Assembly (NCBI GenBank): GCA_030747695.1
Contig: JASLKG010000007.1
Coordinates: 2,261 to 66,260 of the forward strand
From: Candidatus Poseidoniaceae archaeon
GTDB taxonomy: Archaea > Thermoplasmatota > Poseidoniia > Poseidoniales > Poseidoniaceae
DNA length: 64,000 bases
Reading direction: 5' to 3'
In this document: positions 44,742 to 56,127 of the stretch, in pieces
Position numbering within the stretch: position 1 is the first letter of the stretch
Layout of the letters: each line of letters starts with the position of its first letter
Notes under the pieces: generated by a model
The model's database searches: none
The model's input: only the letters and a program-made list of their open reading frames with translations
What the model was told of the DNA's origin: nothing
Position numbers and translations under genes: made by a program

Positions 44742-45797
44742 GTGGACAGACAAAATAGTGGGCTATTCAATTTGGCCGAAATTGTTGTTTTGACAATTGT
44801 AATTTTGGCAACACTTTCTATTGGTTATGACCCTAATATGGCTCCTGAAGAGGAATTACAATTGTCTGAAATTGATGGAACTTTGAGCCTCGTAACACGT
44901 TCTTCTATGGATTCTTTAGGGCTAGAGGATTTCAGGACAGGTGCGATTGCAACAGTTGATTTAGAATCATATCCCGTAATTTCAGGAAATTGTACTCAAT
45001 TTTGTGAATCTACTCCTTCTGGGATACAAATTACTGGTAATGTAAATGTGACAAAACTGCGCCCCCTTGAATCAGATGCAACATTTCGTATCGAAGGGAA
45101 ATTAAACGTAACACATCTGTGGGAATATAGTTCAGACAGTATGATTGTAAGAGAATGGTTAGTGATCGACTGGGATCTTGCTGAATTTTCATCACAATGG
45201 GACGTATATATTCATCACAATCCTCCAAAATGGGTGCCAAGTGATAGGTATCATTCTTCCTTTATTTCTTCTGAACAGGGAAAGATTAGTAGAGCAGGCC
45301 CTGCAATTTTCGTAGAAGAGTTATTTGATGACATCTTGAATGTGAGAGGATGTCTTCCTAATACAGCTAATTGTGATGGCGTAAATAGAGAAGAAATGAA
45401 TTTGACTTCAAAATATGTCAAACCTTCAGAACCAGTTGAAATACAGGGACCAAACATTTGGCATCAAGTTAATGCTAATTCTAGTGTGAATCATAATGTT
45501 TCAAATATTGGAGAATTAAGAAATATGTTTAATCTAGAATCTGCAAATACAAGTATTGATACTTGGTGTATTTCAGAACTTGATGTGATTGATGCAGCAA
45601 ATTCATGGAACGTATTAGGAAATACTGGTACAACGATTGCCCCGATGAATATTTGGCTACAATCAATAGGAATACAGGGAGGGTCATTTACAGCAACTGA
45701 TGGTGTTTGGTCTGAGGCTGACTATGGTGATGAAAATGCGTGTGGGTCATTTGTTAACTCCGAAGGTGTTTTGGTATTAGGTATATCAAAAATGTAA
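44742..45797 (+). CDS. Hypothetical N-terminally anchored or secreted protein
   Basis: GTG start. The N-terminal hydrophobic helix is LFNLAEIVVLTIVILATLSIG. There are many N-x-S/T sequons and no recognisable domain. It lies immediately upstream of the 1695-aa surface protein gene on the same strand. Confidence 0.55.
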   Translation: MDRQNSGLFNLAEIVVLTIVILATLSIGYDPNMAPEEELQLSEIDGTLSLVTRSSMDSLGLEDFRTGAIATVDLESYPVISGNCTQFCESTPSGIQITGNVNVTKLRPLESDATFRIEGKLNVTHLWEYSSDSMIVREWLVIDWDLAEFSSQWDVYIHHNPPKWVPSDRYHSSFISSEQGKISRAGPAIFVEELFDDILNVRGCLPNTANCDGVNREEMNLTSKYVKPSEPVEIQGPNIWHQVNANSSVNHNVSNIGELRNMFNLESANTSIDTWCISELDVIDAANSWNVLGNTGTTIAPMNIWLQSIGIQGGSFTATDGVWSEADYGDENACGSFVNSEGVLVLGISKM

Positions 45798-45886
45798 TGC
45801 AGTAACTTGTTTTCACATCGTTCCGGGAATATAAATTAATTTTTTATGACCGAAAGATAATAGCAGGAGTGCATGAAAGGGATACC

Positions 45887-48800
45887 ATGAAGCGAATAGC
45901 CGTAGTGATAGTTCTATTGTTTGCATGTCTTTCTTTACAGCCAGTGGCAAGCCAAATAGCTGCACCAAATGATACAGCAAATGACACAGCAAATTCTCTA
46001 ACTTATTTGAGCGTTGATGGATTTGTTACAACCAAATTTGCTAGTGTTGGTTCAGAAGTAGATATTCAAGCATTTACACTGGGCCATAATAGTAATACAT
46101 ATGTCAGTGCTGACATTGTAAAGTATGATATTGATCCACTAGAATCTATGATTGATACTGCATTCCCCGGTAATGGTCAATTTGTAGATAGAGTTGTACT
46201 CGTCCAGAGTGGTGTTCACGAAGAAGATTCGGACATTATGACTTGGCAAGGAACATATACAATACCAGTATCTTCTATGGGAGGAGCCTATGGTGCAAGA
46301 ATTATTGCAGAGGATGGAAATTTAGTAGCTATTGATGATCCTACCCAAATCAGGGAAGTCTTCCGTGGCCAATTCGAAACAGTTCTTTCTTCAATTGATT
46401 TTGCTTGGGATTCAGCAAATCCGCTTTCATTAATTGCAGATGAATTCTATGAACTTGAAGAAAAAGGAACATCAAATGGAGGATGGTCTAATTTCGTTGC
46501 AGTAGCTACTGATGGTAGTGGCCCTGGTGGAAGTCAACAATTATGGAATGCAATGCTTGATGCAGGTTACAACCAATACGATATGACAGAAGGCGCAAAT
46601 TTCCTCGATGCATTAATGAATTTCTTGGACTCAGATGATGCAAATGCTAGCATGCTATTTTTGACAGGTCTACTGATGTATGGCCACAATATTCCAATTC
46701 CACAAACACTAGATGGTTTTGAAGAATTAGCCGAATACATACAGTCATATGATCCAATAGAGAATTTCACTAGGTTTGAAGGAACAGATCAATTTGGAGC
46801 AGCGTATGATGCTTTAATCGATAGCGAGCAATGGGATGCAATGAACCAAGCATTGGATAATCTAGCCAACAATGTCAAGCCATTTGAATCCATGCAAACT
46901 GTAATGCACAACATTGCATTGTTAGCAGTTTCAAATCATCCTGAGGATATTGTAGATGGCTTGATGGCATGGGCTGAGCCATTGATGGAAGGAGATTTTG
47001 ATAATATGACCTCTTTCCAGCAATTACTAGTTAGGTTCATTGAAATGGCAGAGAAACTAGATGGTGAAACAGATATTCAAGACCTTGATGGTGACGATGT
47101 CCCTGATAGAATCACTTGGCAATATGAATATCTCCTAGAAACTCAAGAAGGTCAAGCCTGGACAGTAAAGATGGAAAATGACCACCCATGGGTAAACGAT
47201 GCCTTTGACGATTTTAATAATCTTCCAGAAGATATAATCGACATTGTATTTACATCTCTAGAGAACCAAGTATGGGAAGATACTGGATTAGTCTTGGAAG
47301 AATTTAGTAGATGGATGGCAAATGCATCAGGTTCTGGTTTAGAAGCCGAATGGCCGTATTATGATGAAGAAGATGAAGACTCAGAAGAAGATGAAGAACC
47401 AGAAAATTCTGAACCTGATGTTTGCTGTGTGTTTGAACAGTTACACCCAATTACTACTTCAGTCTATGATAATCACAAACTCGAAGTTGGTGTTGAGTTG
47501 CGTATGTGGGGCGGAGAAAGTGAAGAATATCCAGAGACGTTCTACATGTCAATGACTAATGAAAGAGGCTATACTGTCGGAACTGATTTGGTTAAGGATA
47601 CAGAGGATGGGGAAAGATATCTGGGTGTAATGATAGCTCCATCATTTGAGGATACAGAATGGTCATTCTCTCAACCATTAGAAGATTATGGAAGTAGTAG
47701 TGATGCTCAATCAATCGACAGTGCATATATTAGAATCGAAAGGCTCAGACCTTCTTTACTTGAATCAATGGCTATTGAAAACAATGATGAAATTTTCATG
47801 GTGTCCGCACTTGGAGTATTAGTTGATCAGGATGAGACAGGAACTGTTGACCAATCATTTACGGTTACTTCTCAAACTTATGATTCAGCAGGAGAGGTTG
47901 GAAATGTTGAAGTTGATATGGCAATTATTAGGATATCTCCACAACTAGGGGAATCTGCTATTGAATCACTTTCTCCTAATGGTGAATTTGATATTACCAT
48001 AAATTATCCAAATACATTGGAAGGAACTTATTCAGGTGACGACCTTGATGGTGATATAAACATTAAATTAATGCCATTTGGAACATATAATGACGATGAA
48101 GAGAAACAGAAGCATGTGCAATCTTATGGTTTCGATACAATAGAGATTTCGGCAGACGGTTATTCTTGGAATGCTAATAATTATCTTCCTAGCGATAGAG
48201 GTCTCGCGGATCTAGTTATTTCAGGTTCCACTACTGAAGGAATTGAATTCACTGAAATGAAACAAATACCCCTTCCCGGTAGCCTTGGTTGCACTGCAAC
48301 TGAAGGAAGTGGAGATCGTGATACTGCCCATGTAGGATATAATTACCGTACCTTTGAAGCTGACGAAGGTGAACGATTTTGGAAACCTGAGCTCTCGGCT
48401 GTAAGTGTCGATTGGGGTGATGGCACAACTGATGACTATACAGTAAATGAATGGGAAGAGGATCCAAGCGGATGGGAATCACACACATACGAGGAATCTG
48501 GAGAATATTACATTACAGTAGTATACGAAGATGAATTTGGCACAGAGCATTCAGATGAGCTAAGATTTCATACAGACATGGGAGGGTTCTGGCAAGAAGA
48601 ATCTGAATTCGAAGAAGGGGGATATTGGACTTCATGGATCGGTGGAACAAATTGTTGGCTTGAGTCTGAAGAAAGTTCATTGCCAACTCCATCAATAATT
48701 GATAACTTCATTACAGGAGGTCCAGTTGAAGTAGTTACTGAGCAAATAATGACTGCAGATTCTAATGGAGTTGCTAGTTTAACAGTAACTCCTACTCATC

Positions 48801-50956
48801 CTGGTGCGTATGTAACAATTGTACAATCTAAGCACACTTTATCAAACGGAGAAGTAATGACCGGTCTTGGACTAAATTTCATAGCAATAACAGAGGGTAC
48901 TGTGGAAATAGGAGGAAGTACATTGACACCAGTTACAACATTTGCAGGGCTTCCTGTTTACACTGTTGATCCAAGTTCTTCAGGTCTTGAACTATTGGAG
49001 ATTACTCCAAATGGAATAACATCTGATGAGTTTACTGCAACTTTAGGTGTATTCCCGCTCAACATAGATATTGCCTTCCCAGATATCGATTGGGAGGATT
49101 TTTCACAAGAAGAAACTTATGAGATTTTGTTTGAATCTGGTGATGACAAACGTTACCAAGAAGTTAGATTTGACTCTCCGATTTCATTGATTGGGGTTGC
49201 AGTTAACTCTGATGAAGAACAGTTAATGCCTGATGCATTAAGCATTGGGATTGTATTGAATAATCCAGAACAATTAGATGTAATGGGGCAATTAGGTCCA
49301 GGTCAAACATCAAATGTGGCATTAAATGATGGAACAGCGTCTAGAATTTTAGCTGTTGCAGCTCCAAAGGTAGGATTTGATCCTGCAACAGTTGACTTTG
49401 CTTCCTTTACCTCCTTATTGTGGGGTGATGGTTTGAAACCTGATAACGATTGGGTTGAATATGATAAAGTTTCAAATCGCCTATGTGAAGACGTAGGAAT
49501 TGAGTATGCTGACTGGATGGGCGATGATATAAATTATCAAATTAGTTTAAAATTAATTCCAGAGAATGAGTTTATGGTTGGGGACGAACTGATTGATTAT
49601 TCAAATGCTGTAGTGACTGATAGTGAAGGAAACGAAATAACGCCATTTAGTGATTGGGAGGTTACAGATTATGATCCAACAAAAGTTAGAGCATATTTCC
49701 ATTTAGAAGATGAAACTGAATATTACTTGGATACAGGTACTGAACTGGACTCATCGTTGAGTTGGTACTTTGGAGACTCAATATGGGAGACGAATTGCGA
49801 CGATAACCCCTTGACAGATGATGAAGAATTTGAGTTATTTGATGAATTCTTTGGTAATGTGAAATCGATAGCATGGGGTATCGGTTCTAGTGCTGATCTT
49901 TCATTACCACATCTAGCATCTCCAGTTAGCAATTACACTGTATTAGCGATTGTTCAGGCGGGTACAGGGTCTTCTGCAACAATTCATTCTGCAATTGGTT
50001 CACAAGTTGCTGAACCTAATCCAGAACCTCTGATAATGCGTGACTTAGAAATCGATTTGATGCCTGACAACCCCTCTGAAGGAGATGTATTGTTAGTCAC
50101 TGCTTCTGATGCAGAAACTGGAGCACCAGTTGAACAATTGTCAGTGGTAGTTCTGGAAGATGGTCTTACATTGTTTAGCTCATTAAGTGATGAAAATGGT
50201 CAAGCATCTTTCACCTTACCAGAAGGAACTTTGATGGTTAGGGTTTCTGGTGGTATGTATAATGCTGTAGAACTAACACTTACAGTTACTGAAACCGGAA
50301 CGGAAGTCGATGAAGCACCTGACAACGATAACGATGGAATTTCTGATGTTCTAGATAATGATGATGATAATGACGGAATACCAGATGATGAAGATGATAA
50401 TCCAACAGTGCCAGATAATCCAGATATTACTACAGATGCAGATAATGACGGAATATTAGATGGCATGGATCTTTGTCCATCTACAGAATTAGGAGACAGT
50501 GTAAATTCAGTTGGGTGTTCAGAAGCGCAATTGAATGCTGCTGACGATGGCCCTGACGACTCTGGTGATGGTCTTGATGATGATGATAATAAAGAAACAG
50601 AGACAGATGATTCAAATGAAATATTCCTTGGAATGAGTCCTGTTGCACTTGGAGGAATCGGATTTGGAATATTGTTATTATCGACTTTAGGAATTTTATA
50701 TGTGCGTCGAAATAGTTCAGCAGAAAGTGATTGGTTTGAAGAAGAGAATCAACTATTTGAACAACAAATGACAGAATATTCAAAGACAGTACCTGAAGTT
50801 TCAACTCCATCATCTAGTACACCTTCTCCAAGAGGGCCACCGCCAGGCCACCAAGGTCAAATGAGTGACGGATATGAAGTAAGCGAATATCCAAGTGGCA
50901 GTGGCACATGGTGGTGGAAAGATCCAGCTACTGGTAAGTGGAGCGAATGGACTTGA
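45887..50956 (+). CDS. Giant acidic surface protein with PKD domain, carboxypeptidase-regulatory-like domain and TSP3-like repeats, followed by a C-terminal TM and a Pro-rich/Trp-rich cytoplasmic tail
   Basis: Track start is GTG 45869; ATG 45887 gives the Sec-type signal MKRIAVVIVLLFACLSLQPVASQ. The PKD signature is VSVDWGDGTTDDY..HTYEESGEYYITVVYEDEFG. Other cues are DVLLVTASDAETGAPVE..NGQASFTLPEG and DNDNDGISDVLDNDDDNDGIPDDEDDNP. The TM is VALGGIGFGILLLSTLGILYV followed by RR. The tail is ..PSPRGPPPGHQGQMSDGYEVSEYPSGSGTWWWKDPATGKWSEWT. Confidence 0.85.
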   Translation: MKRIAVVIVLLFACLSLQPVASQIAAPNDTANDTANSLTYLSVDGFVTTKFASVGSEVDIQAFTLGHNSNTYVSADIVKYDIDPLESMIDTAFPGNGQFVDRVVLVQSGVHEEDSDIMTWQGTYTIPVSSMGGAYGARIIAEDGNLVAIDDPTQIREVFRGQFETVLSSIDFAWDSANPLSLIADEFYELEEKGTSNGGWSNFVAVATDGSGPGGSQQLWNAMLDAGYNQYDMTEGANFLDALMNFLDSDDANASMLFLTGLLMYGHNIPIPQTLDGFEELAEYIQSYDPIENFTRFEGTDQFGAAYDALIDSEQWDAMNQALDNLANNVKPFESMQTVMHNIALLAVSNHPEDIVDGLMAWAEPLMEGDFDNMTSFQQLLVRFIEMAEKLDGETDIQDLDGDDVPDRITWQYEYLLETQEGQAWTVKMENDHPWVNDAFDDFNNLPEDIIDIVFTSLENQVWEDTGLVLEEFSRWMANASGSGLEAEWPYYDEEDEDSEEDEEPENSEPDVCCVFEQLHPITTSVYDNHKLEVGVELRMWGGESEEYPETFYMSMTNERGYTVGTDLVKDTEDGERYLGVMIAPSFEDTEWSFSQPLEDYGSSSDAQSIDSAYIRIERLRPSLLESMAIENNDEIFMVSALGVLVDQDETGTVDQSFTVTSQTYDSAGEVGNVEVDMAIIRISPQLGESAIESLSPNGEFDITINYPNTLEGTYSGDDLDGDINIKLMPFGTYNDDEEKQKHVQSYGFDTIEISADGYSWNANNYLPSDRGLADLVISGSTTEGIEFTEMKQIPLPGSLGCTATEGSGDRDTAHVGYNYRTFEADEGERFWKPELSAVSVDWGDGTTDDYTVNEWEEDPSGWESHTYEESGEYYITVVYEDEFGTEHSDELRFHTDMGGFWQEESEFEEGGYWTSWIGGTNCWLESEESSLPTPSIIDNFITGGPVEVVTEQIMTADSNGVASLTVTPTHPGAYVTIVQSKHTLSNGEVMTGLGLNFIAITEGTVEIGGSTLTPVTTFAGLPVYTVDPSSSGLELLEITPNGITSDEFTATLGVFPLNIDIAFPDIDWEDFSQEETYEILFESGDDKRYQEVRFDSPISLIGVAVNSDEEQLMPDALSIGIVLNNPEQLDVMGQLGPGQTSNVALNDGTASRILAVAAPKVGFDPATVDFASFTSLLWGDGLKPDNDWVEYDKVSNRLCEDVGIEYADWMGDDINYQISLKLIPENEFMVGDELIDYSNAVVTDSEGNEITPFSDWEVTDYDPTKVRAYFHLEDETEYYLDTGTELDSSLSWYFGDSIWETNCDDNPLTDDEEFELFDEFFGNVKSIAWGIGSSADLSLPHLASPVSNYTVLAIVQAGTGSSATIHSAIGSQVAEPNPEPLIMRDLEIDLMPDNPSEGDVLLVTASDAETGAPVEQLSVVVLEDGLTLFSSLSDENGQASFTLPEGTLMVRVSGGMYNAVELTLTVTETGTEVDEAPDNDNDGISDVLDNDDDNDGIPDDEDDNPTVPDNPDITTDADNDGILDGMDLCPSTELGDSVNSVGCSEAQLNAADDGPDDSGDGLDDDDNKETETDDSNEIFLGMSPVALGGIGFGILLLSTLGILYVRRNSSAESDWFEEENQLFEQQMTEYSKTVPEVSTPSSSTPSPRGPPPGHQGQMSDGYEVSEYPSGSGTWWWKDPATGKWSEWT

Positions 50957-50994: not shown

Positions 50995-53211
50995 ATGGTT
51001 CTCATGAAAACAGAACATCTCCGTATTGTGATTCTTTCCGGACTTGTTCTGTGTTCTACCTTAATTGTGGCATATCCCGTTGAATTAGTTCTTAATACAG
51101 ATGTTATCTTTGAAGATGAAACTATGGCTAGAATAGAATCAGAATCGATATCGGAAGTTGAGCAAGAGGGGCAATTATTGTTGGTCATTAAACATGATAA
51201 TGGTAGCTCTCTGACAGGCGATTTCCAATTTATTGAAAGGCTAATGCAAATTGAACGTGAATTACTAGACGGCTCTAATTCGAGTACATCTTGGGTTTCG
51301 GAAGAAGTTGTTATATCAAAATTAGAAACTCCATTCAACTTTTGGGCTAAAGCCTTTGAATCAAGAAATCGTTCACTTGAAAATGCTAATCAGTGGTCGG
51401 ATGTACTTCAACCCCCACTTGAAGAGGGATGGTGTGGTGACAATTCTACTGAAGCTGAGCAACAAGCATTTGAATCAACCTTACTCCTTTTGCCTAAAGA
51501 TTCTAATTTTGGAGTAGCATGCCCCTCATTTCCTGGCGCAGACGCTGAACAACCTCCAGATCCAGATGAAATGTTATGGCTTGTTTGGTTGAAATCTGAG
51601 GGAGGAGATACAGATTGGAATTCGTTGAATATTTGGGCTGAAAAGGTTAGTGATTCTACTGAATTTGAATTTGAAGCAGTAGGGGTAAACATGCTATTTG
51701 CAAAATCCAAGGTGATAGCAAAAAATGACATTAATAACGTAATGATCCCCTCTATTTTTGCTTTAGCAATTGTTTTGGTAGTGATACTTAGAGATTGGAA
51801 AGTGTCTGTTGCAACATTAGGTGGAGTTGTCTTAGTGATTTGTGCTGAAGCAGGTTTACTTTCAGCCCTTGGTAAATCGATGTCAATTGTGGATGCAATC
51901 GCCTTTCCAATAGTGTTAGCAGTTGCAGTCGATGGTGCATTTTGGTATTGTAAATCCTCTAGGAGTAAAGAGGAAGTCCGTTCAATATTATTGATGGCAA
52001 TGGCAACAACCCTGGCAGCAATATCTCTTGCTATGATTTCACCCCTCAAGGCTCAAAGTTCACTTGCAATGGTAATGGCAATAGGTATTATTTTGAGTTG
52101 GATTGTGACACGTTTTGTTTTGGAAGATTTTTTCCTCAATAGTCGGCGCATTAGTACGAATGAGAATGAACTGAAGGAATCAATATTCACAAATAAATCA
52201 GCAATTTGGAGTTGGCCAATAGCATTATTGTTGCTCGCATCAATTGCAATAATCTCTCCAAATGGAGTTGAAGTATTTGATGTCAATCAATTCTTACCAG
52301 AGGATGATCCAGCATTAGGCGAATTTGATGAATTACAATCTAAATATATTATTGCTTCAAGTACAGTAACTTGGGTTGTCGTAAATACTGAAGGTGACTC
52401 TACAGATGATTTCCAAGCAATAGTAGATTTTCAAAAACAACTGGGAAACCACCCTAGTGTAATCTCATTTGAAACGGGCATAATGAAATCACCATTGGTG
52501 ATGGGTATCACTACTAATTCTCAGGGACTGACTAATTCAACATTCGACCAAGTGTCACAATATAGTTATGGTTCACCCATAATGGATGATCACAGACTTC
52601 AGAGTTCTGGAAAAACAACAGGTATTGCAATAGCACTATTTATTGATGGATCAAATGCTGATGCAGCATTACAATTAATGGAGGATATTGATTATTTATT
52701 GGATTCAAGTAATCTTTCAGGAGAGGTAGGAGGAGATTTGGTAGTAGGATCCTCTTTAGCTAGAGACTTTGAAGATTCTAGAGTCACTCAAATATTAGCT
52801 GCGGGATTTGCAGTATTTTTTGTTTCAGCAATAATTACAGGCAATCCTCAGCGTTCACTTAGAATTGCAATAGGTACGATTGCAATTGGTGCGGCAGTAG
52901 ACGGAATGGCCAGTATGATTGGGGAGAGAGGCGTTAGTACTGCACCAGCAGTTCTACTTGGAATGGGTTTTGCTGCTGATTATCTTTCACATGCTAGTGC
53001 TAATCATGTGACCACTCGCAACGATAATTTCGCAAGATGGGGGGCTGCAATTACATCAGTATCTGTATTCATATTGCTAAGCTTTGCAACATTTCCTCCT
53101 GCTAGAGAAACAGGGCAATTGTTGGGAATGAGTATACTATTTTCAGTAACTTTGGCAACCTGTCTCGCAATCAACCTCAGCAATTTTTCATTAACAGATT
53201 CAGAAGAGTAA
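50995..53211 (+). CDS. RND-superfamily (MMPL/COG1033-type) membrane transporter
   Basis: The topology is 1 TM, a large loop, 5 TM, 1 TM, a large loop, then 5 TM. The first bundle is IPSIFALAIVLVVILRDWKVSVATLGGVVLVICAEAGLLSALGKSMSIVDAIAFPIVLAVAVDGAFWY, which resembles the MMPL/SSD-type core (..lgigvDy.i..). Confidence 0.65.
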   Translation: MVLMKTEHLRIVILSGLVLCSTLIVAYPVELVLNTDVIFEDETMARIESESISEVEQEGQLLLVIKHDNGSSLTGDFQFIERLMQIERELLDGSNSSTSWVSEEVVISKLETPFNFWAKAFESRNRSLENANQWSDVLQPPLEEGWCGDNSTEAEQQAFESTLLLLPKDSNFGVACPSFPGADAEQPPDPDEMLWLVWLKSEGGDTDWNSLNIWAEKVSDSTEFEFEAVGVNMLFAKSKVIAKNDINNVMIPSIFALAIVLVVILRDWKVSVATLGGVVLVICAEAGLLSALGKSMSIVDAIAFPIVLAVAVDGAFWYCKSSRSKEEVRSILLMAMATTLAAISLAMISPLKAQSSLAMVMAIGIILSWIVTRFVLEDFFLNSRRISTNENELKESIFTNKSAIWSWPIALLLLASIAIISPNGVEVFDVNQFLPEDDPALGEFDELQSKYIIASSTVTWVVVNTEGDSTDDFQAIVDFQKQLGNHPSVISFETGIMKSPLVMGITTNSQGLTNSTFDQVSQYSYGSPIMDDHRLQSSGKTTGIAIALFIDGSNADAALQLMEDIDYLLDSSNLSGEVGGDLVVGSSLARDFEDSRVTQILAAGFAVFFVSAIITGNPQRSLRIAIGTIAIGAAVDGMASMIGERGVSTAPAVLLGMGFAADYLSHASANHVTTRNDNFARWGAAITSVSVFILLSFATFPPARETGQLLGMSILFSVTLATCLAINLSNFSLTDSEE

Positions 53212-53258: not shown

Positions 53259-56087
53259 CTAATCTGTTGTTTCATCGTCACTAGTTGCTTCCGTGAGTTC
53301 ATCATCCTTCTCCTCAGATTCTTCCTCCTGCATAGACTCAACTTCTAATGTTTCTTCTTGTGTTAGGTTAACAGATTCTTCCACAAATGCACTTGAGAAC
53401 TCCTCTTCATCAGGCCTAGTGTTTGAGTTTTTGAAGATCATTGCAGAGCCTAATAGAATACAAATTAATCCTAGAGAGTACAATGCAATAGTTAGGTAAT
53501 CTGCCCAGTGATCGAAATTAGTCCAATACGCCATACTATCTTGATTAGTAACGATTTGACTTTTCAGAGAATTGGCGTCACTATCTCCAATTTCAGCACT
53601 CGTTTTAATGACAAACACTTGTTGTAAATCAGAATTGCTTGGGGGTTCTTGCTGTTCCCATGTAGGCCTTGTATCTAACCAGAATGTTGATTCGGATTTA
53701 CCAGCAATAATTGCACCAGAAACAACTTCCCGCTTTACTTCAACATGACTTTCAAAATAGACTGGAAGTGCCCCTGGAGTCGCATCTAAAATATCTCCAT
53801 TGTTAATCAATTTAGCTTGTATAGGGCGGTTCAAAGGATCCATATCTGCATTGCAAACCTCAACTGGTATTCCTTTGAGAATTTCATCCTTTGAGCATGT
53901 AATTGGTACTACTCCATATCCTGAAAGATCAACTAAGTCACCATCTCCTGTAAGGAATCCTCCTGTAGTACCCGTCATGCTTTCAGCAGTAATCAATCCC
54001 CATGTGGCTAGTTCTTTTTGAGGATTCTTCCAAGAGAGGTAAGTGCTGCCATCCTTTGACAAAGTCTCACCTTTGTCGCAGTCATCAGATTCGCCCGTGC
54101 AGATTGTAACTATTGTACCATCTCCTGTTGAAATACCACCAGAACCATAGTATGTTTTATTGGATTCTAAACTTGTCCAACCCACACTCATGTCTTCAGA
54201 ATCTCCAGAGTCTAAATATGCATTAACTGGATCATGCCACCCTAATAGCCAATTGTTAACAGATTGTGTGAGATAAGGGGCTGTACCAAAATTATCGATT
54301 AGGAAATCTGGAACGAAATTCTTGAAAATAACTTCCATGATAAGTAAACGTAAAGCATCAGCAGCATTGGTATCTATACCATATAATTCGGCAATTGTTT
54401 CGTTATTCCATTCTTTGACAGTGTCGGAGCGTAGTCCTGTTTCAAAATCAACAGGAGGTGCTTTCCCTGATAACTCACCATAAAGGAAAATTGCAGAACC
54501 ATTACTTGTAGCAAGCCCATATGGCCCATACAGAATATTTGCGCTCTGCTCTTGAGTAAGTTCGATTCTATCAGCGACAGGGAAACCGTACAGGCCACTG
54601 CCCCACCATCCGTTTGCATTTAGGCTATATTCCATGTATGAGTCATCAATTGGATTAATTGAACCAAATGTTTGATTGACAAATTCTGATGCTGTAATAT
54701 ATCCTTCATGACCAGTTAGAATTAGTGGAAGTTCAGAATTATCTGTGGCCCAAGAATTTGCCCAATCAAAAATAGATTGGTATTGTAATTCACTTAGCCC
54801 ATAAGTCTCCATGGCTTCACTTTTTGACATTTCAAGAAACAAATCAAGACCAAAGGAGGTCCCGCTTTCACTTGTTGCCAGAATGCCTAGAGGTTCGTCA
54901 GTATTGTCTCCCATCATCAGAACATTCATCGCAATTTCATTGTCAATTTGTAATCCCATAAGGTTGCTAAATCGTTTTGAGGCGTTTACAACATCTTCAC
55001 TTGTGTTTGTAGTCCAGTCTTCTTGTAGAGCTCCATAATCTTGCATCAAGGCACCAATGCTTCCATAAATGGTCCAGTCTCTTGACAAGGTAACATTTAG
55101 ATCTTCATCTGTAAATCCCCATAATTCTGCACGTTGTAGAGTTACTGATGAGTCAGGGTTTTCAAGTATTTCATCTAGTGATTCTGGTTCGCCCATTGCT
55201 GCATAGACAAGTGGCCCAAGATAATTGAGAAGAGAAAGATCTTCGCCATTAGGACCTGTAGCTTCACGGAAGGTATAGTTTGCATCATAATCGTCGTCAT
55301 ACCAATCAGGATCAACCCCTCCAGATTCTAGATAGGTAGAGTTGTCATTTTCTAAGAAATTTTCACCAAAGACAGGATCTAATGCTTCGAATCCTCTTAC
55401 TAAGAAATATGCTTTCACATCTTCGCCGATAGGGAAAAAGAATCCAGCTAGTCCTGACATATTTTTCAAAAAGTCTTCAATGTATTTTGAAACTTGATGT
55501 GCCGCAGAACCCTTCTCCAGATATAATTCAAGGACTCCTGATGCGAATCCAACCTTTGTTAATTCCATAATTGCATTAATTGCAGTCCCACTCGCTCCTA
55601 TTATTTGAGGTGTAAAAGCAATATTTAGGTTTGAAATTGTTGAATCGCATGGTATAGCCGTATCTTCCGAGCAAGAATATGATGTAAATTCACGGTACGT
55701 AATCGTTCCAGCCAATTCATCGTGATTGATCATGGTTCTTTCAAGTGTCACATCATAAGTTACAGGTCCTACCATTTCATATTCTGGTTTAACCTGATCT
55801 GGTAATGGTAATCTTGATGTTTCAATTACTTCATCAATGTTCCAGATATTCCATGCATAGAAATCTCTCGAACTTGTTGAACTAAGCCAATCTTCATTCT
55901 GTTCAGTACAATCAGAATTTGCACAAACATCATCCTTTGGTTTTGTAGCAGTAGCGTCAGCGACCGCATCTGGTACAGCGCTTGTAGCCATGGGTCCTAG
56001 GGCTGCAAGATTTAGAGTAATCATCAGTAGGCCAGCAATCACCGTTACCTTGTCTAGGTTGGGCATAGTCCACTGAGTGTAGGTCAA
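53259..56087 (-). CDS. Two-pass (N- and C-terminal TM) glycoprotein-like membrane protein with CD36/LIMP-2-family-like motifs
   Basis: The N-terminal anchor is VTVIAGLLMITLNLAALG and the C-terminal anchor is LTIALYSLGLICILLGSAMIF followed by an acidic tail. Motifs FYAWNIWNIDEVI..KPEYEMVGPVTYDV..GTITYRE, AELWGFTDEDL, NNWLLGWHDPVNAYL, LKGIPVEV, GALPVYFESH and STFWLD occur in the same order as conserved CD36-family blocks, recalled from memory. The CDS call is solid, but the family assignment is tentative. The start is TTG 56087 or ATG 56066. Confidence 0.8.
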   Translation of the reverse strand: MTYTQWTMPNLDKVTVIAGLLMITLNLAALGPMATSAVPDAVADATATKPKDDVCANSDCTEQNEDWLSSTSSRDFYAWNIWNIDEVIETSRLPLPDQVKPEYEMVGPVTYDVTLERTMINHDELAGTITYREFTSYSCSEDTAIPCDSTISNLNIAFTPQIIGASGTAINAIMELTKVGFASGVLELYLEKGSAAHQVSKYIEDFLKNMSGLAGFFFPIGEDVKAYFLVRGFEALDPVFGENFLENDNSTYLESGGVDPDWYDDDYDANYTFREATGPNGEDLSLLNYLGPLVYAAMGEPESLDEILENPDSSVTLQRAELWGFTDEDLNVTLSRDWTIYGSIGALMQDYGALQEDWTTNTSEDVVNASKRFSNLMGLQIDNEIAMNVLMMGDNTDEPLGILATSESGTSFGLDLFLEMSKSEAMETYGLSELQYQSIFDWANSWATDNSELPLILTGHEGYITASEFVNQTFGSINPIDDSYMEYSLNANGWWGSGLYGFPVADRIELTQEQSANILYGPYGLATSNGSAIFLYGELSGKAPPVDFETGLRSDTVKEWNNETIAELYGIDTNAADALRLLIMEVIFKNFVPDFLIDNFGTAPYLTQSVNNWLLGWHDPVNAYLDSGDSEDMSVGWTSLESNKTYYGSGGISTGDGTIVTICTGESDDCDKGETLSKDGSTYLSWKNPQKELATWGLITAESMTGTTGGFLTGDGDLVDLSGYGVVPITCSKDEILKGIPVEVCNADMDPLNRPIQAKLINNGDILDATPGALPVYFESHVEVKREVVSGAIIAGKSESTFWLDTRPTWEQQEPPSNSDLQQVFVIKTSAEIGDSDANSLKSQIVTNQDSMAYWTNFDHWADYLTIALYSLGLICILLGSAMIFKNSNTRPDEEEFSSAFVEESVNLTQEETLEVESMQEEESEEKDDELTEATSDDETTD

Positions 56088-56127
56088 TCTTGTAAAGAGT
56101 TCTACTGTTTAAACAGAAATAACACAT

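Follow-up and report, generated by a model that had tools for sequence, protein, structure and literature searches.

A divergent CD36-family protein with a large helical apex domain in Poseidoniales archaea

The subject of this analysis is a gene on the minus strand of a 64,000-nucleotide stretch of DNA from a Candidatus Poseidoniaceae archaeon (contig JASLKG010000007.1), the whole of which is called the window. The open reading frame (ORF), at 53259..56087, encodes a two-pass membrane protein that, with high confidence, truly belongs to the CD36/SR-B family, though as a very divergent member. This assignment of family and fold is made because four partly independent lines of evidence, Pfam, hmmsearch of the Protein Data Bank (PDB), hhalign and Foldseek, agree with one another and are collinear. 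The best overall explanation is a CD36-type protein for the transfer of lipids or other hydrophobic ligands, with a helical domain at its apex (probability about 0.6). A CD36-like protein had been proposed here from the letters of the DNA (the sequence-only reading); that interpretation is supported, while several of its details were wrong.

Sequence similarity to the CD36 family

Scored with Pfam PF01130, the window protein reaches 37.8 bits where the curated cutoff is 26.5 (E=1.1e-9), in a comparison that the sequence-only reading had named beforehand as a possible refutation. The same family is precomputed on 116 of the 120 homologues listed. Nine divergent full-length members, one of which represents a cluster with a Thalassarchaeaceae protein, all exceed the cutoff when each is tested alone (29-68 bits), and in several of the divergent members the match starts at profile position 2. 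When the window protein is scanned in separate pieces, the N-terminal piece matches profile positions 50-133, and the insert (residues 161-604) and the C-terminal piece match nothing in Pfam. Deletion of the insert lengthens the match to profile position 180, taking in the NNWLLGWHDP block, and the isolated C-terminal halves of two homologues, P0125 and P0129, match positions 162-252 above the cutoff (33.6 and 31.6 bits, respectively). Significant homology covers about 220 of the 463 PF01130 positions (2-134 and 162-252). An NCBIfam match of the window protein was rejected as spurious; it falls below threshold and is confined to the acidic tail.

Since phmmer with the single window sequence gives no match in the PDB, a profile search was used for this comparison. 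The profile, built from 33 homologues and searched against all PDB sequences, retrieves only CD36 and LIMP-2 chains, weakly (E 0.02-0.06) and through the N-terminal block only. In the profile-profile alignment with hhalign, the template was a profile of genuine mammalian CD36 and LIMP-2 database entries only. The alignment has 95% probability (E=4e-8), where the sequence-only reading had set a limit of 50%, and extends over 152 columns that include the first transmembrane helix (TM1). With the insert removed, a collinear alignment of 361 columns is obtained at 95.4% probability (query 26-411 against template 13-432 of 478), which runs from TM1 to just before the second transmembrane helix (TM2), with a score no higher than that of the N-terminal part alone.

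Of the motif blocks in the sequence-only reading, the two strongest hold in a proper profile alignment, and their nucleotide and residue coordinates are correct. At residues 76-131 (55695-55862), FYAWNIWNIDEVI...EMVGPVTYDV...GTITYRE aligns with FYFFNVTNPEEIL...EEVGPYTYRE of LIMP-2 in Pfam, the PDB profile search and hhalign. At residues 611-625 (54213-54257), NNWLLGWHDPVNAYL aligns with ELLWGYKDEILSL in the spliced Pfam match, in hhalign and in the C-terminal halves of homologues. The other proposed pairings are more mixed. LKGIPV with VQGLPAF is plausible at low confidence in hhalign. For MTGTTGGF and NGTDGDSF the neighbourhood is right, also at low confidence, while the exact register is off by three residues in hhalign. 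GALPVYFESH, which had been set against GAPIIMSFPHF, is paired by hhalign with EGMHPNQEDH. VMYLNE is not the partner of STFWLD; the PDB profile search and hhalign place VFVIKTSAEIGDSDANSLKSQIV opposite PVMYLNESVHIDKETASRLKSMI instead.

Topology and domain organization

Translation from a TTG codon confirms the ORF of 942 residues. A database twin identical to the window protein (P0001, from a Candidatus Poseidoniaceae metagenome-assembled genome (MAG) and named "hypothetical protein" at NCBI) has 935 residues and starts at Met8. Since the identical deposited protein begins there, the true start is probably Met8 (ATG, nucleotide 56066), seven codons in, which gives 935 residues. The 40-nucleotide gap between the pyruvate kinase gene and the CD36-like gene (window 56088-56127, minus strand) contains a TTTAAA about 47 nucleotides upstream of the Met8 ATG. 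Judged by its sequence, the TTTAAA may serve as an archaeal TATA box and provide the CD36-like gene with its own promoter.

The CD36 topology that had been proposed, a short N-terminus, a transmembrane (TM) helix, a huge ectodomain, a second TM helix and an acidic C-terminus, is borne out by hydropathy, by structure models and by the homologues. The hydropathy profile has exactly two hydrophobic segments, residues 14-34 and 864-886, and both are helices in two AlphaFold2 models (residues 11-35 and 861-886). The N-terminal TM helix (residues ~11-35; 55983..56057, minus strand, as are all features of the protein), which also matches TM1 of CD36 and LIMP-2 in hhalign, is a probable uncleaved signal anchor. 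The C-terminal TM helix (residues ~861-887; 53427..53507) is followed by a cytoplasmic tail of about 55 residues (888-942; 53262..53426), which is acidic and disordered, with a predicted local distance difference test score (pLDDT) below 50. The tail is acidic across the 92 full-length homologues checked, with a family median of 42% Asp plus Glu. The two-TM layout is present in 91 of these 92 proteins, which places the family within the operational definition of SR-B proteins (PMC10715195). The Lys and Arg residues that flank the helices, together with eight conserved cysteines in the ectodomain, suggest that both termini are cytoplasmic and that the ectodomain lies outside.

The ectodomain has about 825 residues and eight cysteines, all of which are invariant across homologues; the isoelectric point listed for the protein is 4.05. 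It is divided into three parts. The N-terminal beta block of the CD36 domain (residues ~60-162; 55602..55910), recognized by Pfam (profile positions 50-134), by the hmmsearch of the PDB and by hhalign at 95%, has long strands at residues 69-81, 103-123 and 128-139. It carries FYAWNIWN...VGPVTYDV...TITYRE and the invariant cysteines C55/C60 and C139/C147. The apex insertion (residues 163-600; 54288..55601), mostly alpha-helical, separates Pfam profile positions ~134 and ~162. With about 440 residues, it is longer than the 300-400 residues first estimated. The C-terminal beta region (residues 601-860; 53508..54287), supported by the spliced Pfam match, the C-terminal halves of homologues and the Foldseek columns, opens with NNWLLGWHDPV, an ELLWGY-type block, and contains the invariant cysteines C663/C670 and C731/C745. 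Conservation is highest in the C-terminal beta region (0.74), followed by the N-terminal beta block (0.65), the insert (0.61) and the tail (0.20). The ectodomain had also been described as rich in N-x-S/T sites; its 11 sequons are no more than chance, since 8.8 are expected from composition.

Predicted fold

Two template-free AlphaFold2 models of the window protein were built from different alignments. The model from alignment A1 (33 sequences) has a pLDDT of 71.1 and a predicted template modelling score (pTM) of 0.55, and the model from alignment A4 (93 sequences) has a pLDDT of 77.4 and a pTM of 0.64. Both have the same layout, with beta-strands at residues 69-139, a helical part at residues ~160-600, beta-strands at residues 607-832, and the terminal TM helices. 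When each model is searched against the PDB with Foldseek, ranks 1-13 are all LIMP-2 (4f7b, 4q4b, 4q4f, 4tw0, 9fjf and 5uph) or CD36 (5lgd), with E values of 1e-6 to 3e-3, a probability of 1.00 and 279-318 aligned columns. LIMP-2 and CD36 are the sole significant PDB matches of the two models, in a check that the sequence-only reading had called for. Since about 280-318 columns are aligned, the C-terminal beta region must take part in the fold match. The next match is LmcA of M. smegmatis (7n3v/7shw), with E 0.03-0.13 and template modelling scores (TM-scores) of 0.24-0.31, and below it there is only noise. The ectodomain is predicted by these models to form the asymmetric antiparallel beta-barrel of the CD36 type.

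The apex insertion

In the better model (A4), most of the insert has a pLDDT of 85-95. Even so, residues 163-600 give no match in Pfam, in the hhalign comparison with CD36 or in the fold search against the PDB, and neither the Pfam scan nor Foldseek against the PDB finds an adhesion-type domain in them. The subfamilies are all 857-942 residues long, and the insert is common to every one of them. The W..GW.DP block lies at about residue 550-615 in the subfamilies examined, except in P0142, the most divergent. Because of this uniform length and block position, the insert is taken as ancestral to the archaeal family. The segment AELWGFTDEDL (residues 319-330), which had been taken for an ELLWGY-type block, falls inside the insert and has no CD36 similarity. 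Since the insert resembles neither CD36 nor the protein's own core, the suggested duplication of the ELLWGY block is discarded.

The three-helix apex usual in the CD36 family is absent, and the helical domain of about 440 residues takes its place. Non-metazoan SR-B proteins have ectodomains of 413-2,294 residues, and their expansions are always at the apex, between motifs M4 and M6 (helices alpha4/alpha5), where they are helical and have no known homology (PMC10715195). Since apex expansions are common in these members, the three-helix apex is typical of metazoans and does not define the family. The same holds for the metazoan disulfide pattern. In the low-confidence hhalign alignment, the pairs 55/60, 139/147, 663/670 and 731/745 and the LIMP-2 cysteines fall in different columns, and the metazoan disulfides are likewise absent outside Metazoa, so this pattern is not family-defining either (PMC10715195).

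Comparison with eukaryotic and bacterial relatives

The archaeal host, unlike the hosts of eukaryotic SR-B proteins, has no endomembranes or lipoproteins. The protein itself shares with CD36/SCARB3, LIMP-2/SCARB2 and SR-BI/SCARB1 (PF01130) the two-pass topology, the order of motifs (F-Y-x-F/W-N-[IV]-x-N ... V-G-P-x-T-Y and then the ELLWGY-type block, here WLLGWHDP), the predicted asymmetric beta-barrel and a helical element at the membrane-distal apex. It differs from them in its low identity (about 13-17% in the structural alignment), in the size of its ectodomain (about 825 residues, compared with about 400 in eukaryotes), in having the helical domain of about 440 residues instead of the three-helix apex, and in its different set of four conserved cysteine pairs. 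The non-metazoan SR-B proteins, such as Dictyostelium LmpA and those of Phytophthora and Tetrahymena, are closer in architecture. Their insertion site, which lies between M4 and M6 (alpha4/alpha5), is where the archaeal insert is found; both kinds of insert are alpha-helical and have no homology to known domains, both proteins lack the metazoan disulfides, and the archaeal ectodomain is inside the reported size range (PMC10715195). However, the eukaryotic expansions are described as independent and lineage-specific (PMC10715195), and the likeness to the archaeal insert is one of position and description.

The actinobacterial DUF3068/PorA proteins LmcA and PgfA (MSMEG_0317; 7n3v; PF11271) are also prokaryotic and membrane-anchored, and have a large extracytoplasmic CD36-like barrel with cavities. 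PgfA and MmpL3 co-immunoprecipitate; PgfA also binds trehalose monomycolate and requires its C-terminal cytoplasmic tail (PMC9678360). Lipid binding is demonstrated for PgfA, whereas for LmcA it is deduced from the structure. LmcA is the second-best fold match of the archaeal protein (E 0.03-0.13, compared with 1e-6 for LIMP-2), but it has no apex bundle, whereas the archaeal apex is large. The DUF3068/PorA family is reported as exclusive to Actinobacteria, whereas the sequence of the archaeal protein assigns it to CD36 proper, and PF11271 gives no match with the window protein even at E<=10. The C-terminal 343 residues of P0129 match PorA/DUF3068 (PF11271) with E=0.0024 and 17.7 bits, under the cutoff of 29.5, and match CD36 above its cutoff. 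P0129 may be a bridge at the sequence level between eukaryotic CD36 and the actinobacterial proteins with the CD36 fold.

Distribution and native origin

A HMMER search of 1.84 billion representative proteins gives 248 matches, of which the 150 listed all belong to the archaeal CD36-like family or are fragments of it; among these 150 there are no intermediates towards a canonical CD36 of about 470 residues. The species genomes of GTDB were scanned with two family-specific peptide patterns, whose reach is limited to close relatives. The scan yields 123 stretches with a relative, and the 80 loci kept are all from Poseidoniales/Poseidoniaceae or from generically labelled archaeal MAGs. The family is a narrow, isolated one. 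Every identified homologue is from Poseidoniales, with both families of the order represented, and no copies were found on viral contigs. P0119 (NCBI MDC3267803.1) is named 'CD36 family protein [bacterium]'. Since it clusters at 90% or more with Poseidoniaceae and Euryarchaeota MAG proteins, it probably comes from a mislabelled archaeal bin.

The subfamilies are 26-60% identical. At least two paralogue groups can be told apart, and some genomes carry both (L004 and L042, L012 and L055, L030 and L063). The window gene belongs to the orthologous group (group A). Group B paralogues (loci L018-L077, for example L024:10001-12616) are 42-49% identical to the window protein and have a different neighbourhood, with a divergent TRM1 gene upstream and a PurM-like AIRS gene, a PF00756 esterase gene and MCM downstream. 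Upstream of group B genes there is also a gene for a 1,426-residue FG-GAP protein.

The gene is chromosomal and native to the archaeon. It lies downstream of the genes of the phenylalanyl-tRNA synthetase (PheRS) alpha subunit and pyruvate kinase, on the same strand; further neighbours in the window encode TFB, adenylosuccinate synthetase, FolD and an aminotransferase. Its GC content and its GC content at third codon positions (GC3) match those of its neighbours, and the order pyruvate kinase to CD36-like gene is found again in 25 species genomes of Poseidoniales, single-cell genomes among them. The archaeal context asserted by the sequence-only reading is confirmed in this way. Eukaryotic contamination and recent transfer are ruled out by the archaeal housekeeping flanks, the matching GC and GC3 and the conserved synteny.

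Gene neighbourhood

In the orthologous group, the usual order downstream of the CD36-like gene is a co-directional SPFH/Band-7 gene, two small genes and a convergent RND gene. The SPFH/Band-7 gene is co-directional in 15 of the 25 loci with enough flank. A convergent HAE3/MMPL RND gene is found within 0.5-4.3 kb of the CD36-like gene in 14 group A loci, and its position is unchanged with or without the intervening SPFH gene. The RND neighbour matches HAE3 (8e-51), MMPL (6e-35), HpnN, a hopanoid transporter (5e-25), BstA, a sterol transporter (7e-15), and MmpL3 (5e-7).

The block found between the CD36-like and RND genes in most orthologous loci (L001:5059-5979, L059:13911-14726, L022:14905-15267 and L005:15435-18197) consists of the SPFH/Band-7 gene, a gene for an acidic protein of 271 residues that has hydrophobic stretches close to both ends, and a gene for a cysteine-rich protein of 120 residues, and is followed by the HAE3/MMPL RND gene. 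The acidic protein belongs to no known family. The window does not have the SPFH gene or the two small genes of this block.

The convergent neighbour in the window is a protein of 738 residues, TM738 (50995..53211, plus strand), a candidate partner by analogy, which has about 11 hydrophobic segments arranged roughly as 1+5 / 1+4-5. It has no Pfam match. Over residues 243-721 it matches NCBIfam TIGR03480 HpnN (E=4e-6) and TIGR00921 HAE3 (E=5e-5), both far under the curated cutoffs. Among the fetched loci its orthologue is found in L067 only, in the equivalent convergent position, with 63% identity. These weak NCBIfam matches and the TM layout suggest that TM738 may be an RND transporter that has diverged very far and become shorter.

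Two further genes precede that of TM738 on the plus strand. An ORF of 1,695 residues (45869-50956), co-directional with the TM738 gene and 38 nucleotides upstream of it, has a hydrophobic N-terminal segment and, at residues 1592-1610, a C-terminal anchor. It matches no Pfam family and has a weak match to the RbmA-like protein PamR of a pilus system (E=8e-4). Its product is probably a giant surface protein, and orthologues are present in L067 and L057. Just upstream of it is an ORF of 351 residues (44742-45797), which is 44-46% identical to its counterparts in L057 and L067 and has no match in Pfam or NCBIfam.

Proposed function

A mechanism is proposed by analogy with CD36, SR-BI and LIMP-2. 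On this analogy, transfer of a lipid or another hydrophobic ligand is somewhat better than an even proposition as the function of the archaeal protein. The distal apex domain would capture a hydrophobic ligand or dock onto a lipid-bearing particle or surface. The ligand would then move through a tunnel in the interior of the barrel, crossing the aqueous gap that separates the cell envelope from the membrane, and would be released into the outer leaflet beside the two TM helices. The favoured cargo would be lipids, such as long-chain fatty acids, derived from algal or particulate organic matter, which would feed fatty-acid degradation, and the neighbouring lipid-type RND transporter might be a functional partner. 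Fatty-acid degradation is encoded by all Poseidoniales genera (PMC6461757).

Several observations count against this explanation, some of them against the family assignment beneath it and others against the RND partnership. On the side of sequence, the C-terminal half alone reaches only E=0.008 and 5% probability in hhalign. The last ~45% of the profile, positions ~252-463, has no significant sequence signal of its own, and its backing is the collinear, low-confidence hhalign alignment together with the fold match. On the side of structure, the target-normalised TM-scores of the Foldseek matches are 0.36-0.42, with root-mean-square deviations of 6-11 Å, and the training set of AlphaFold included LIMP-2 and CD36 structures. 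As for the partner, the RND gene is convergent and not co-transcribed with the CD36-like gene, no RND gene is found near the second paralogue group, and a gene order kept within one archaeal family may reflect common descent. Since the orientation is convergent and the synteny is within one family, the RND link is suggestive only. The hhalign comparison of TM738 with the MMPL neighbour is not significant, so that TM738 cannot be called a divergent MMPL orthologue.

The direction of transport may also be outward, although we regard this as unlikely. The protein would then be the hand-off partner of the HAE3/MMPL-like RND exporter, in the manner of PgfA and MmpL3, and would bring lipids, isoprenoids or lipid-anchored envelope components to the surface or the S-layer. 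This possibility draws on the kept position of the convergent RND gene in the 14 group A loci, regardless of the SPFH gene, and on the HAE3/HpnN-like protein at that position in the window and L067. It also draws on the partnership, ligand and essential tail of PgfA (PMC9678360), on LmcA as the sole fold match outside CD36, on the weak PorA/DUF3068 match in the C-terminal half of P0129, and on the SPFH/Band-7 gene, which belongs to a type associated with membrane microdomains. However, the two genes are convergent and not operonic, the second paralogue group lacks an RND neighbour, and the archaeal protein is far closer to eukaryotic CD36 than to DUF3068, both in Pfam, where CD36 is above cutoff and PorA absent or below it, and in Foldseek (1e-6 compared with 0.03-0.13).

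Less likely still is a receptor or adhesin in which the barrel is a scaffold that conducts no lipid, and the apex serves to bind macromolecules, particles, the cell surface of algae or S-layer components; viruses might also use such a protein as their receptor. The apexes of eukaryotic CD36-family proteins are docking sites for proteins and particles (PMC10715195). The archaeal apex is large, well folded in the models and conserved nearly as well as the N-terminal beta block, and FG-GAP and other giant surface proteins are encoded close by, in the paralogue loci and the window. Yet the most conserved part of the protein is the barrel's C-terminal region, which is unexpected for a passive stalk, the characterised relatives all bind lipids, including bacterial LmcA and PgfA, and the insert contains no adhesion-type domain that Pfam or Foldseek against the PDB could recognize. 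The last alternative, that there is no real archaeal CD36 homologue here and that the similarity arises from chance, convergence, AlphaFold bias or eukaryotic contamination of the bin, could appeal to the half or so of the Pfam profile that is significantly matched, to the TM-scores below 0.5 and to the empty single-sequence phmmer search, but it is effectively refuted by the collinear agreement of Pfam (above cutoff in every subfamily), the PDB hmmsearch, hhalign and Foldseek on two models, by archaeal flanks of matching composition and by the pyruvate kinase/PheRS synteny in 25 species genomes.

Evolutionary and biological implications

The sequence-only reading treated CD36 as a eukaryotic family, which is a fair account of the literature. 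A survey of CD36-domain evolution published in 2023 covers 165 eukaryotic proteomes, does not mention prokaryotes and places the origin of the domain at the last eukaryotic common ancestor (PMC10715195), and no paper was found in the literature searched that pairs CD36 with Poseidoniales, marine Group II (MGII) or any archaeon. The NCBI pipeline names several of the homologues "CD36 family protein [Candidatus Poseidoniaceae archaeon]", so that the match was already latent in the databases. The novelty is reduced by these labels, and the function proposed here is deduced by analogy. The presence of CD36 in Poseidoniales is taxonomically unexpected and, as far as we found, unpublished, while the architecture of the protein is within the range of the family.

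A wider interpretation can be offered tentatively, as a possibility with the odds against it. The CD36 barrel may not be a eukaryotic invention, and may instead be a cross-domain lipid-transfer fold, shared by eukaryotic SR-B proteins, Poseidoniales and DUF3068 and ancestrally paired with RND-type lipid transporters. In eukaryotes the partners would be LIMP-2/SR-B and NPC1/Patched-type proteins, in mycobacteria PgfA and MmpL3, and in Poseidoniales the CD36-like protein and HAE3/MMPL. The Poseidoniales proteins would then be the sister group of all eukaryotic SR-B proteins or the product of an ancient transfer, and they would supply the missing envelope-crossing step in the uptake or export of lipids by marine Group II.

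The surprise is real for those who study the evolution of SR-B proteins or marine archaea. For CD36 biology, a deeply diversified archaeal branch that spans the two families of Poseidoniales provides an outgroup or, alternatively, a dated event of transfer, and a prokaryotic CD36 protein may be easier to express for work on the tunnel mechanism. The recurring adjacency to an RND gene echoes the PgfA-MmpL3 pair, and suggests a general two-part arrangement for moving lipids across the aqueous space of the envelope. Among planktonic archaea, Poseidoniales rank with the most abundant; they are uncultured and are inferred lipid consumers. To our knowledge no route of lipid uptake has been proposed for them, and for marine microbiology the CD36-like protein is a concrete, testable candidate for the movement of lipids to or from the Poseidoniales membrane.

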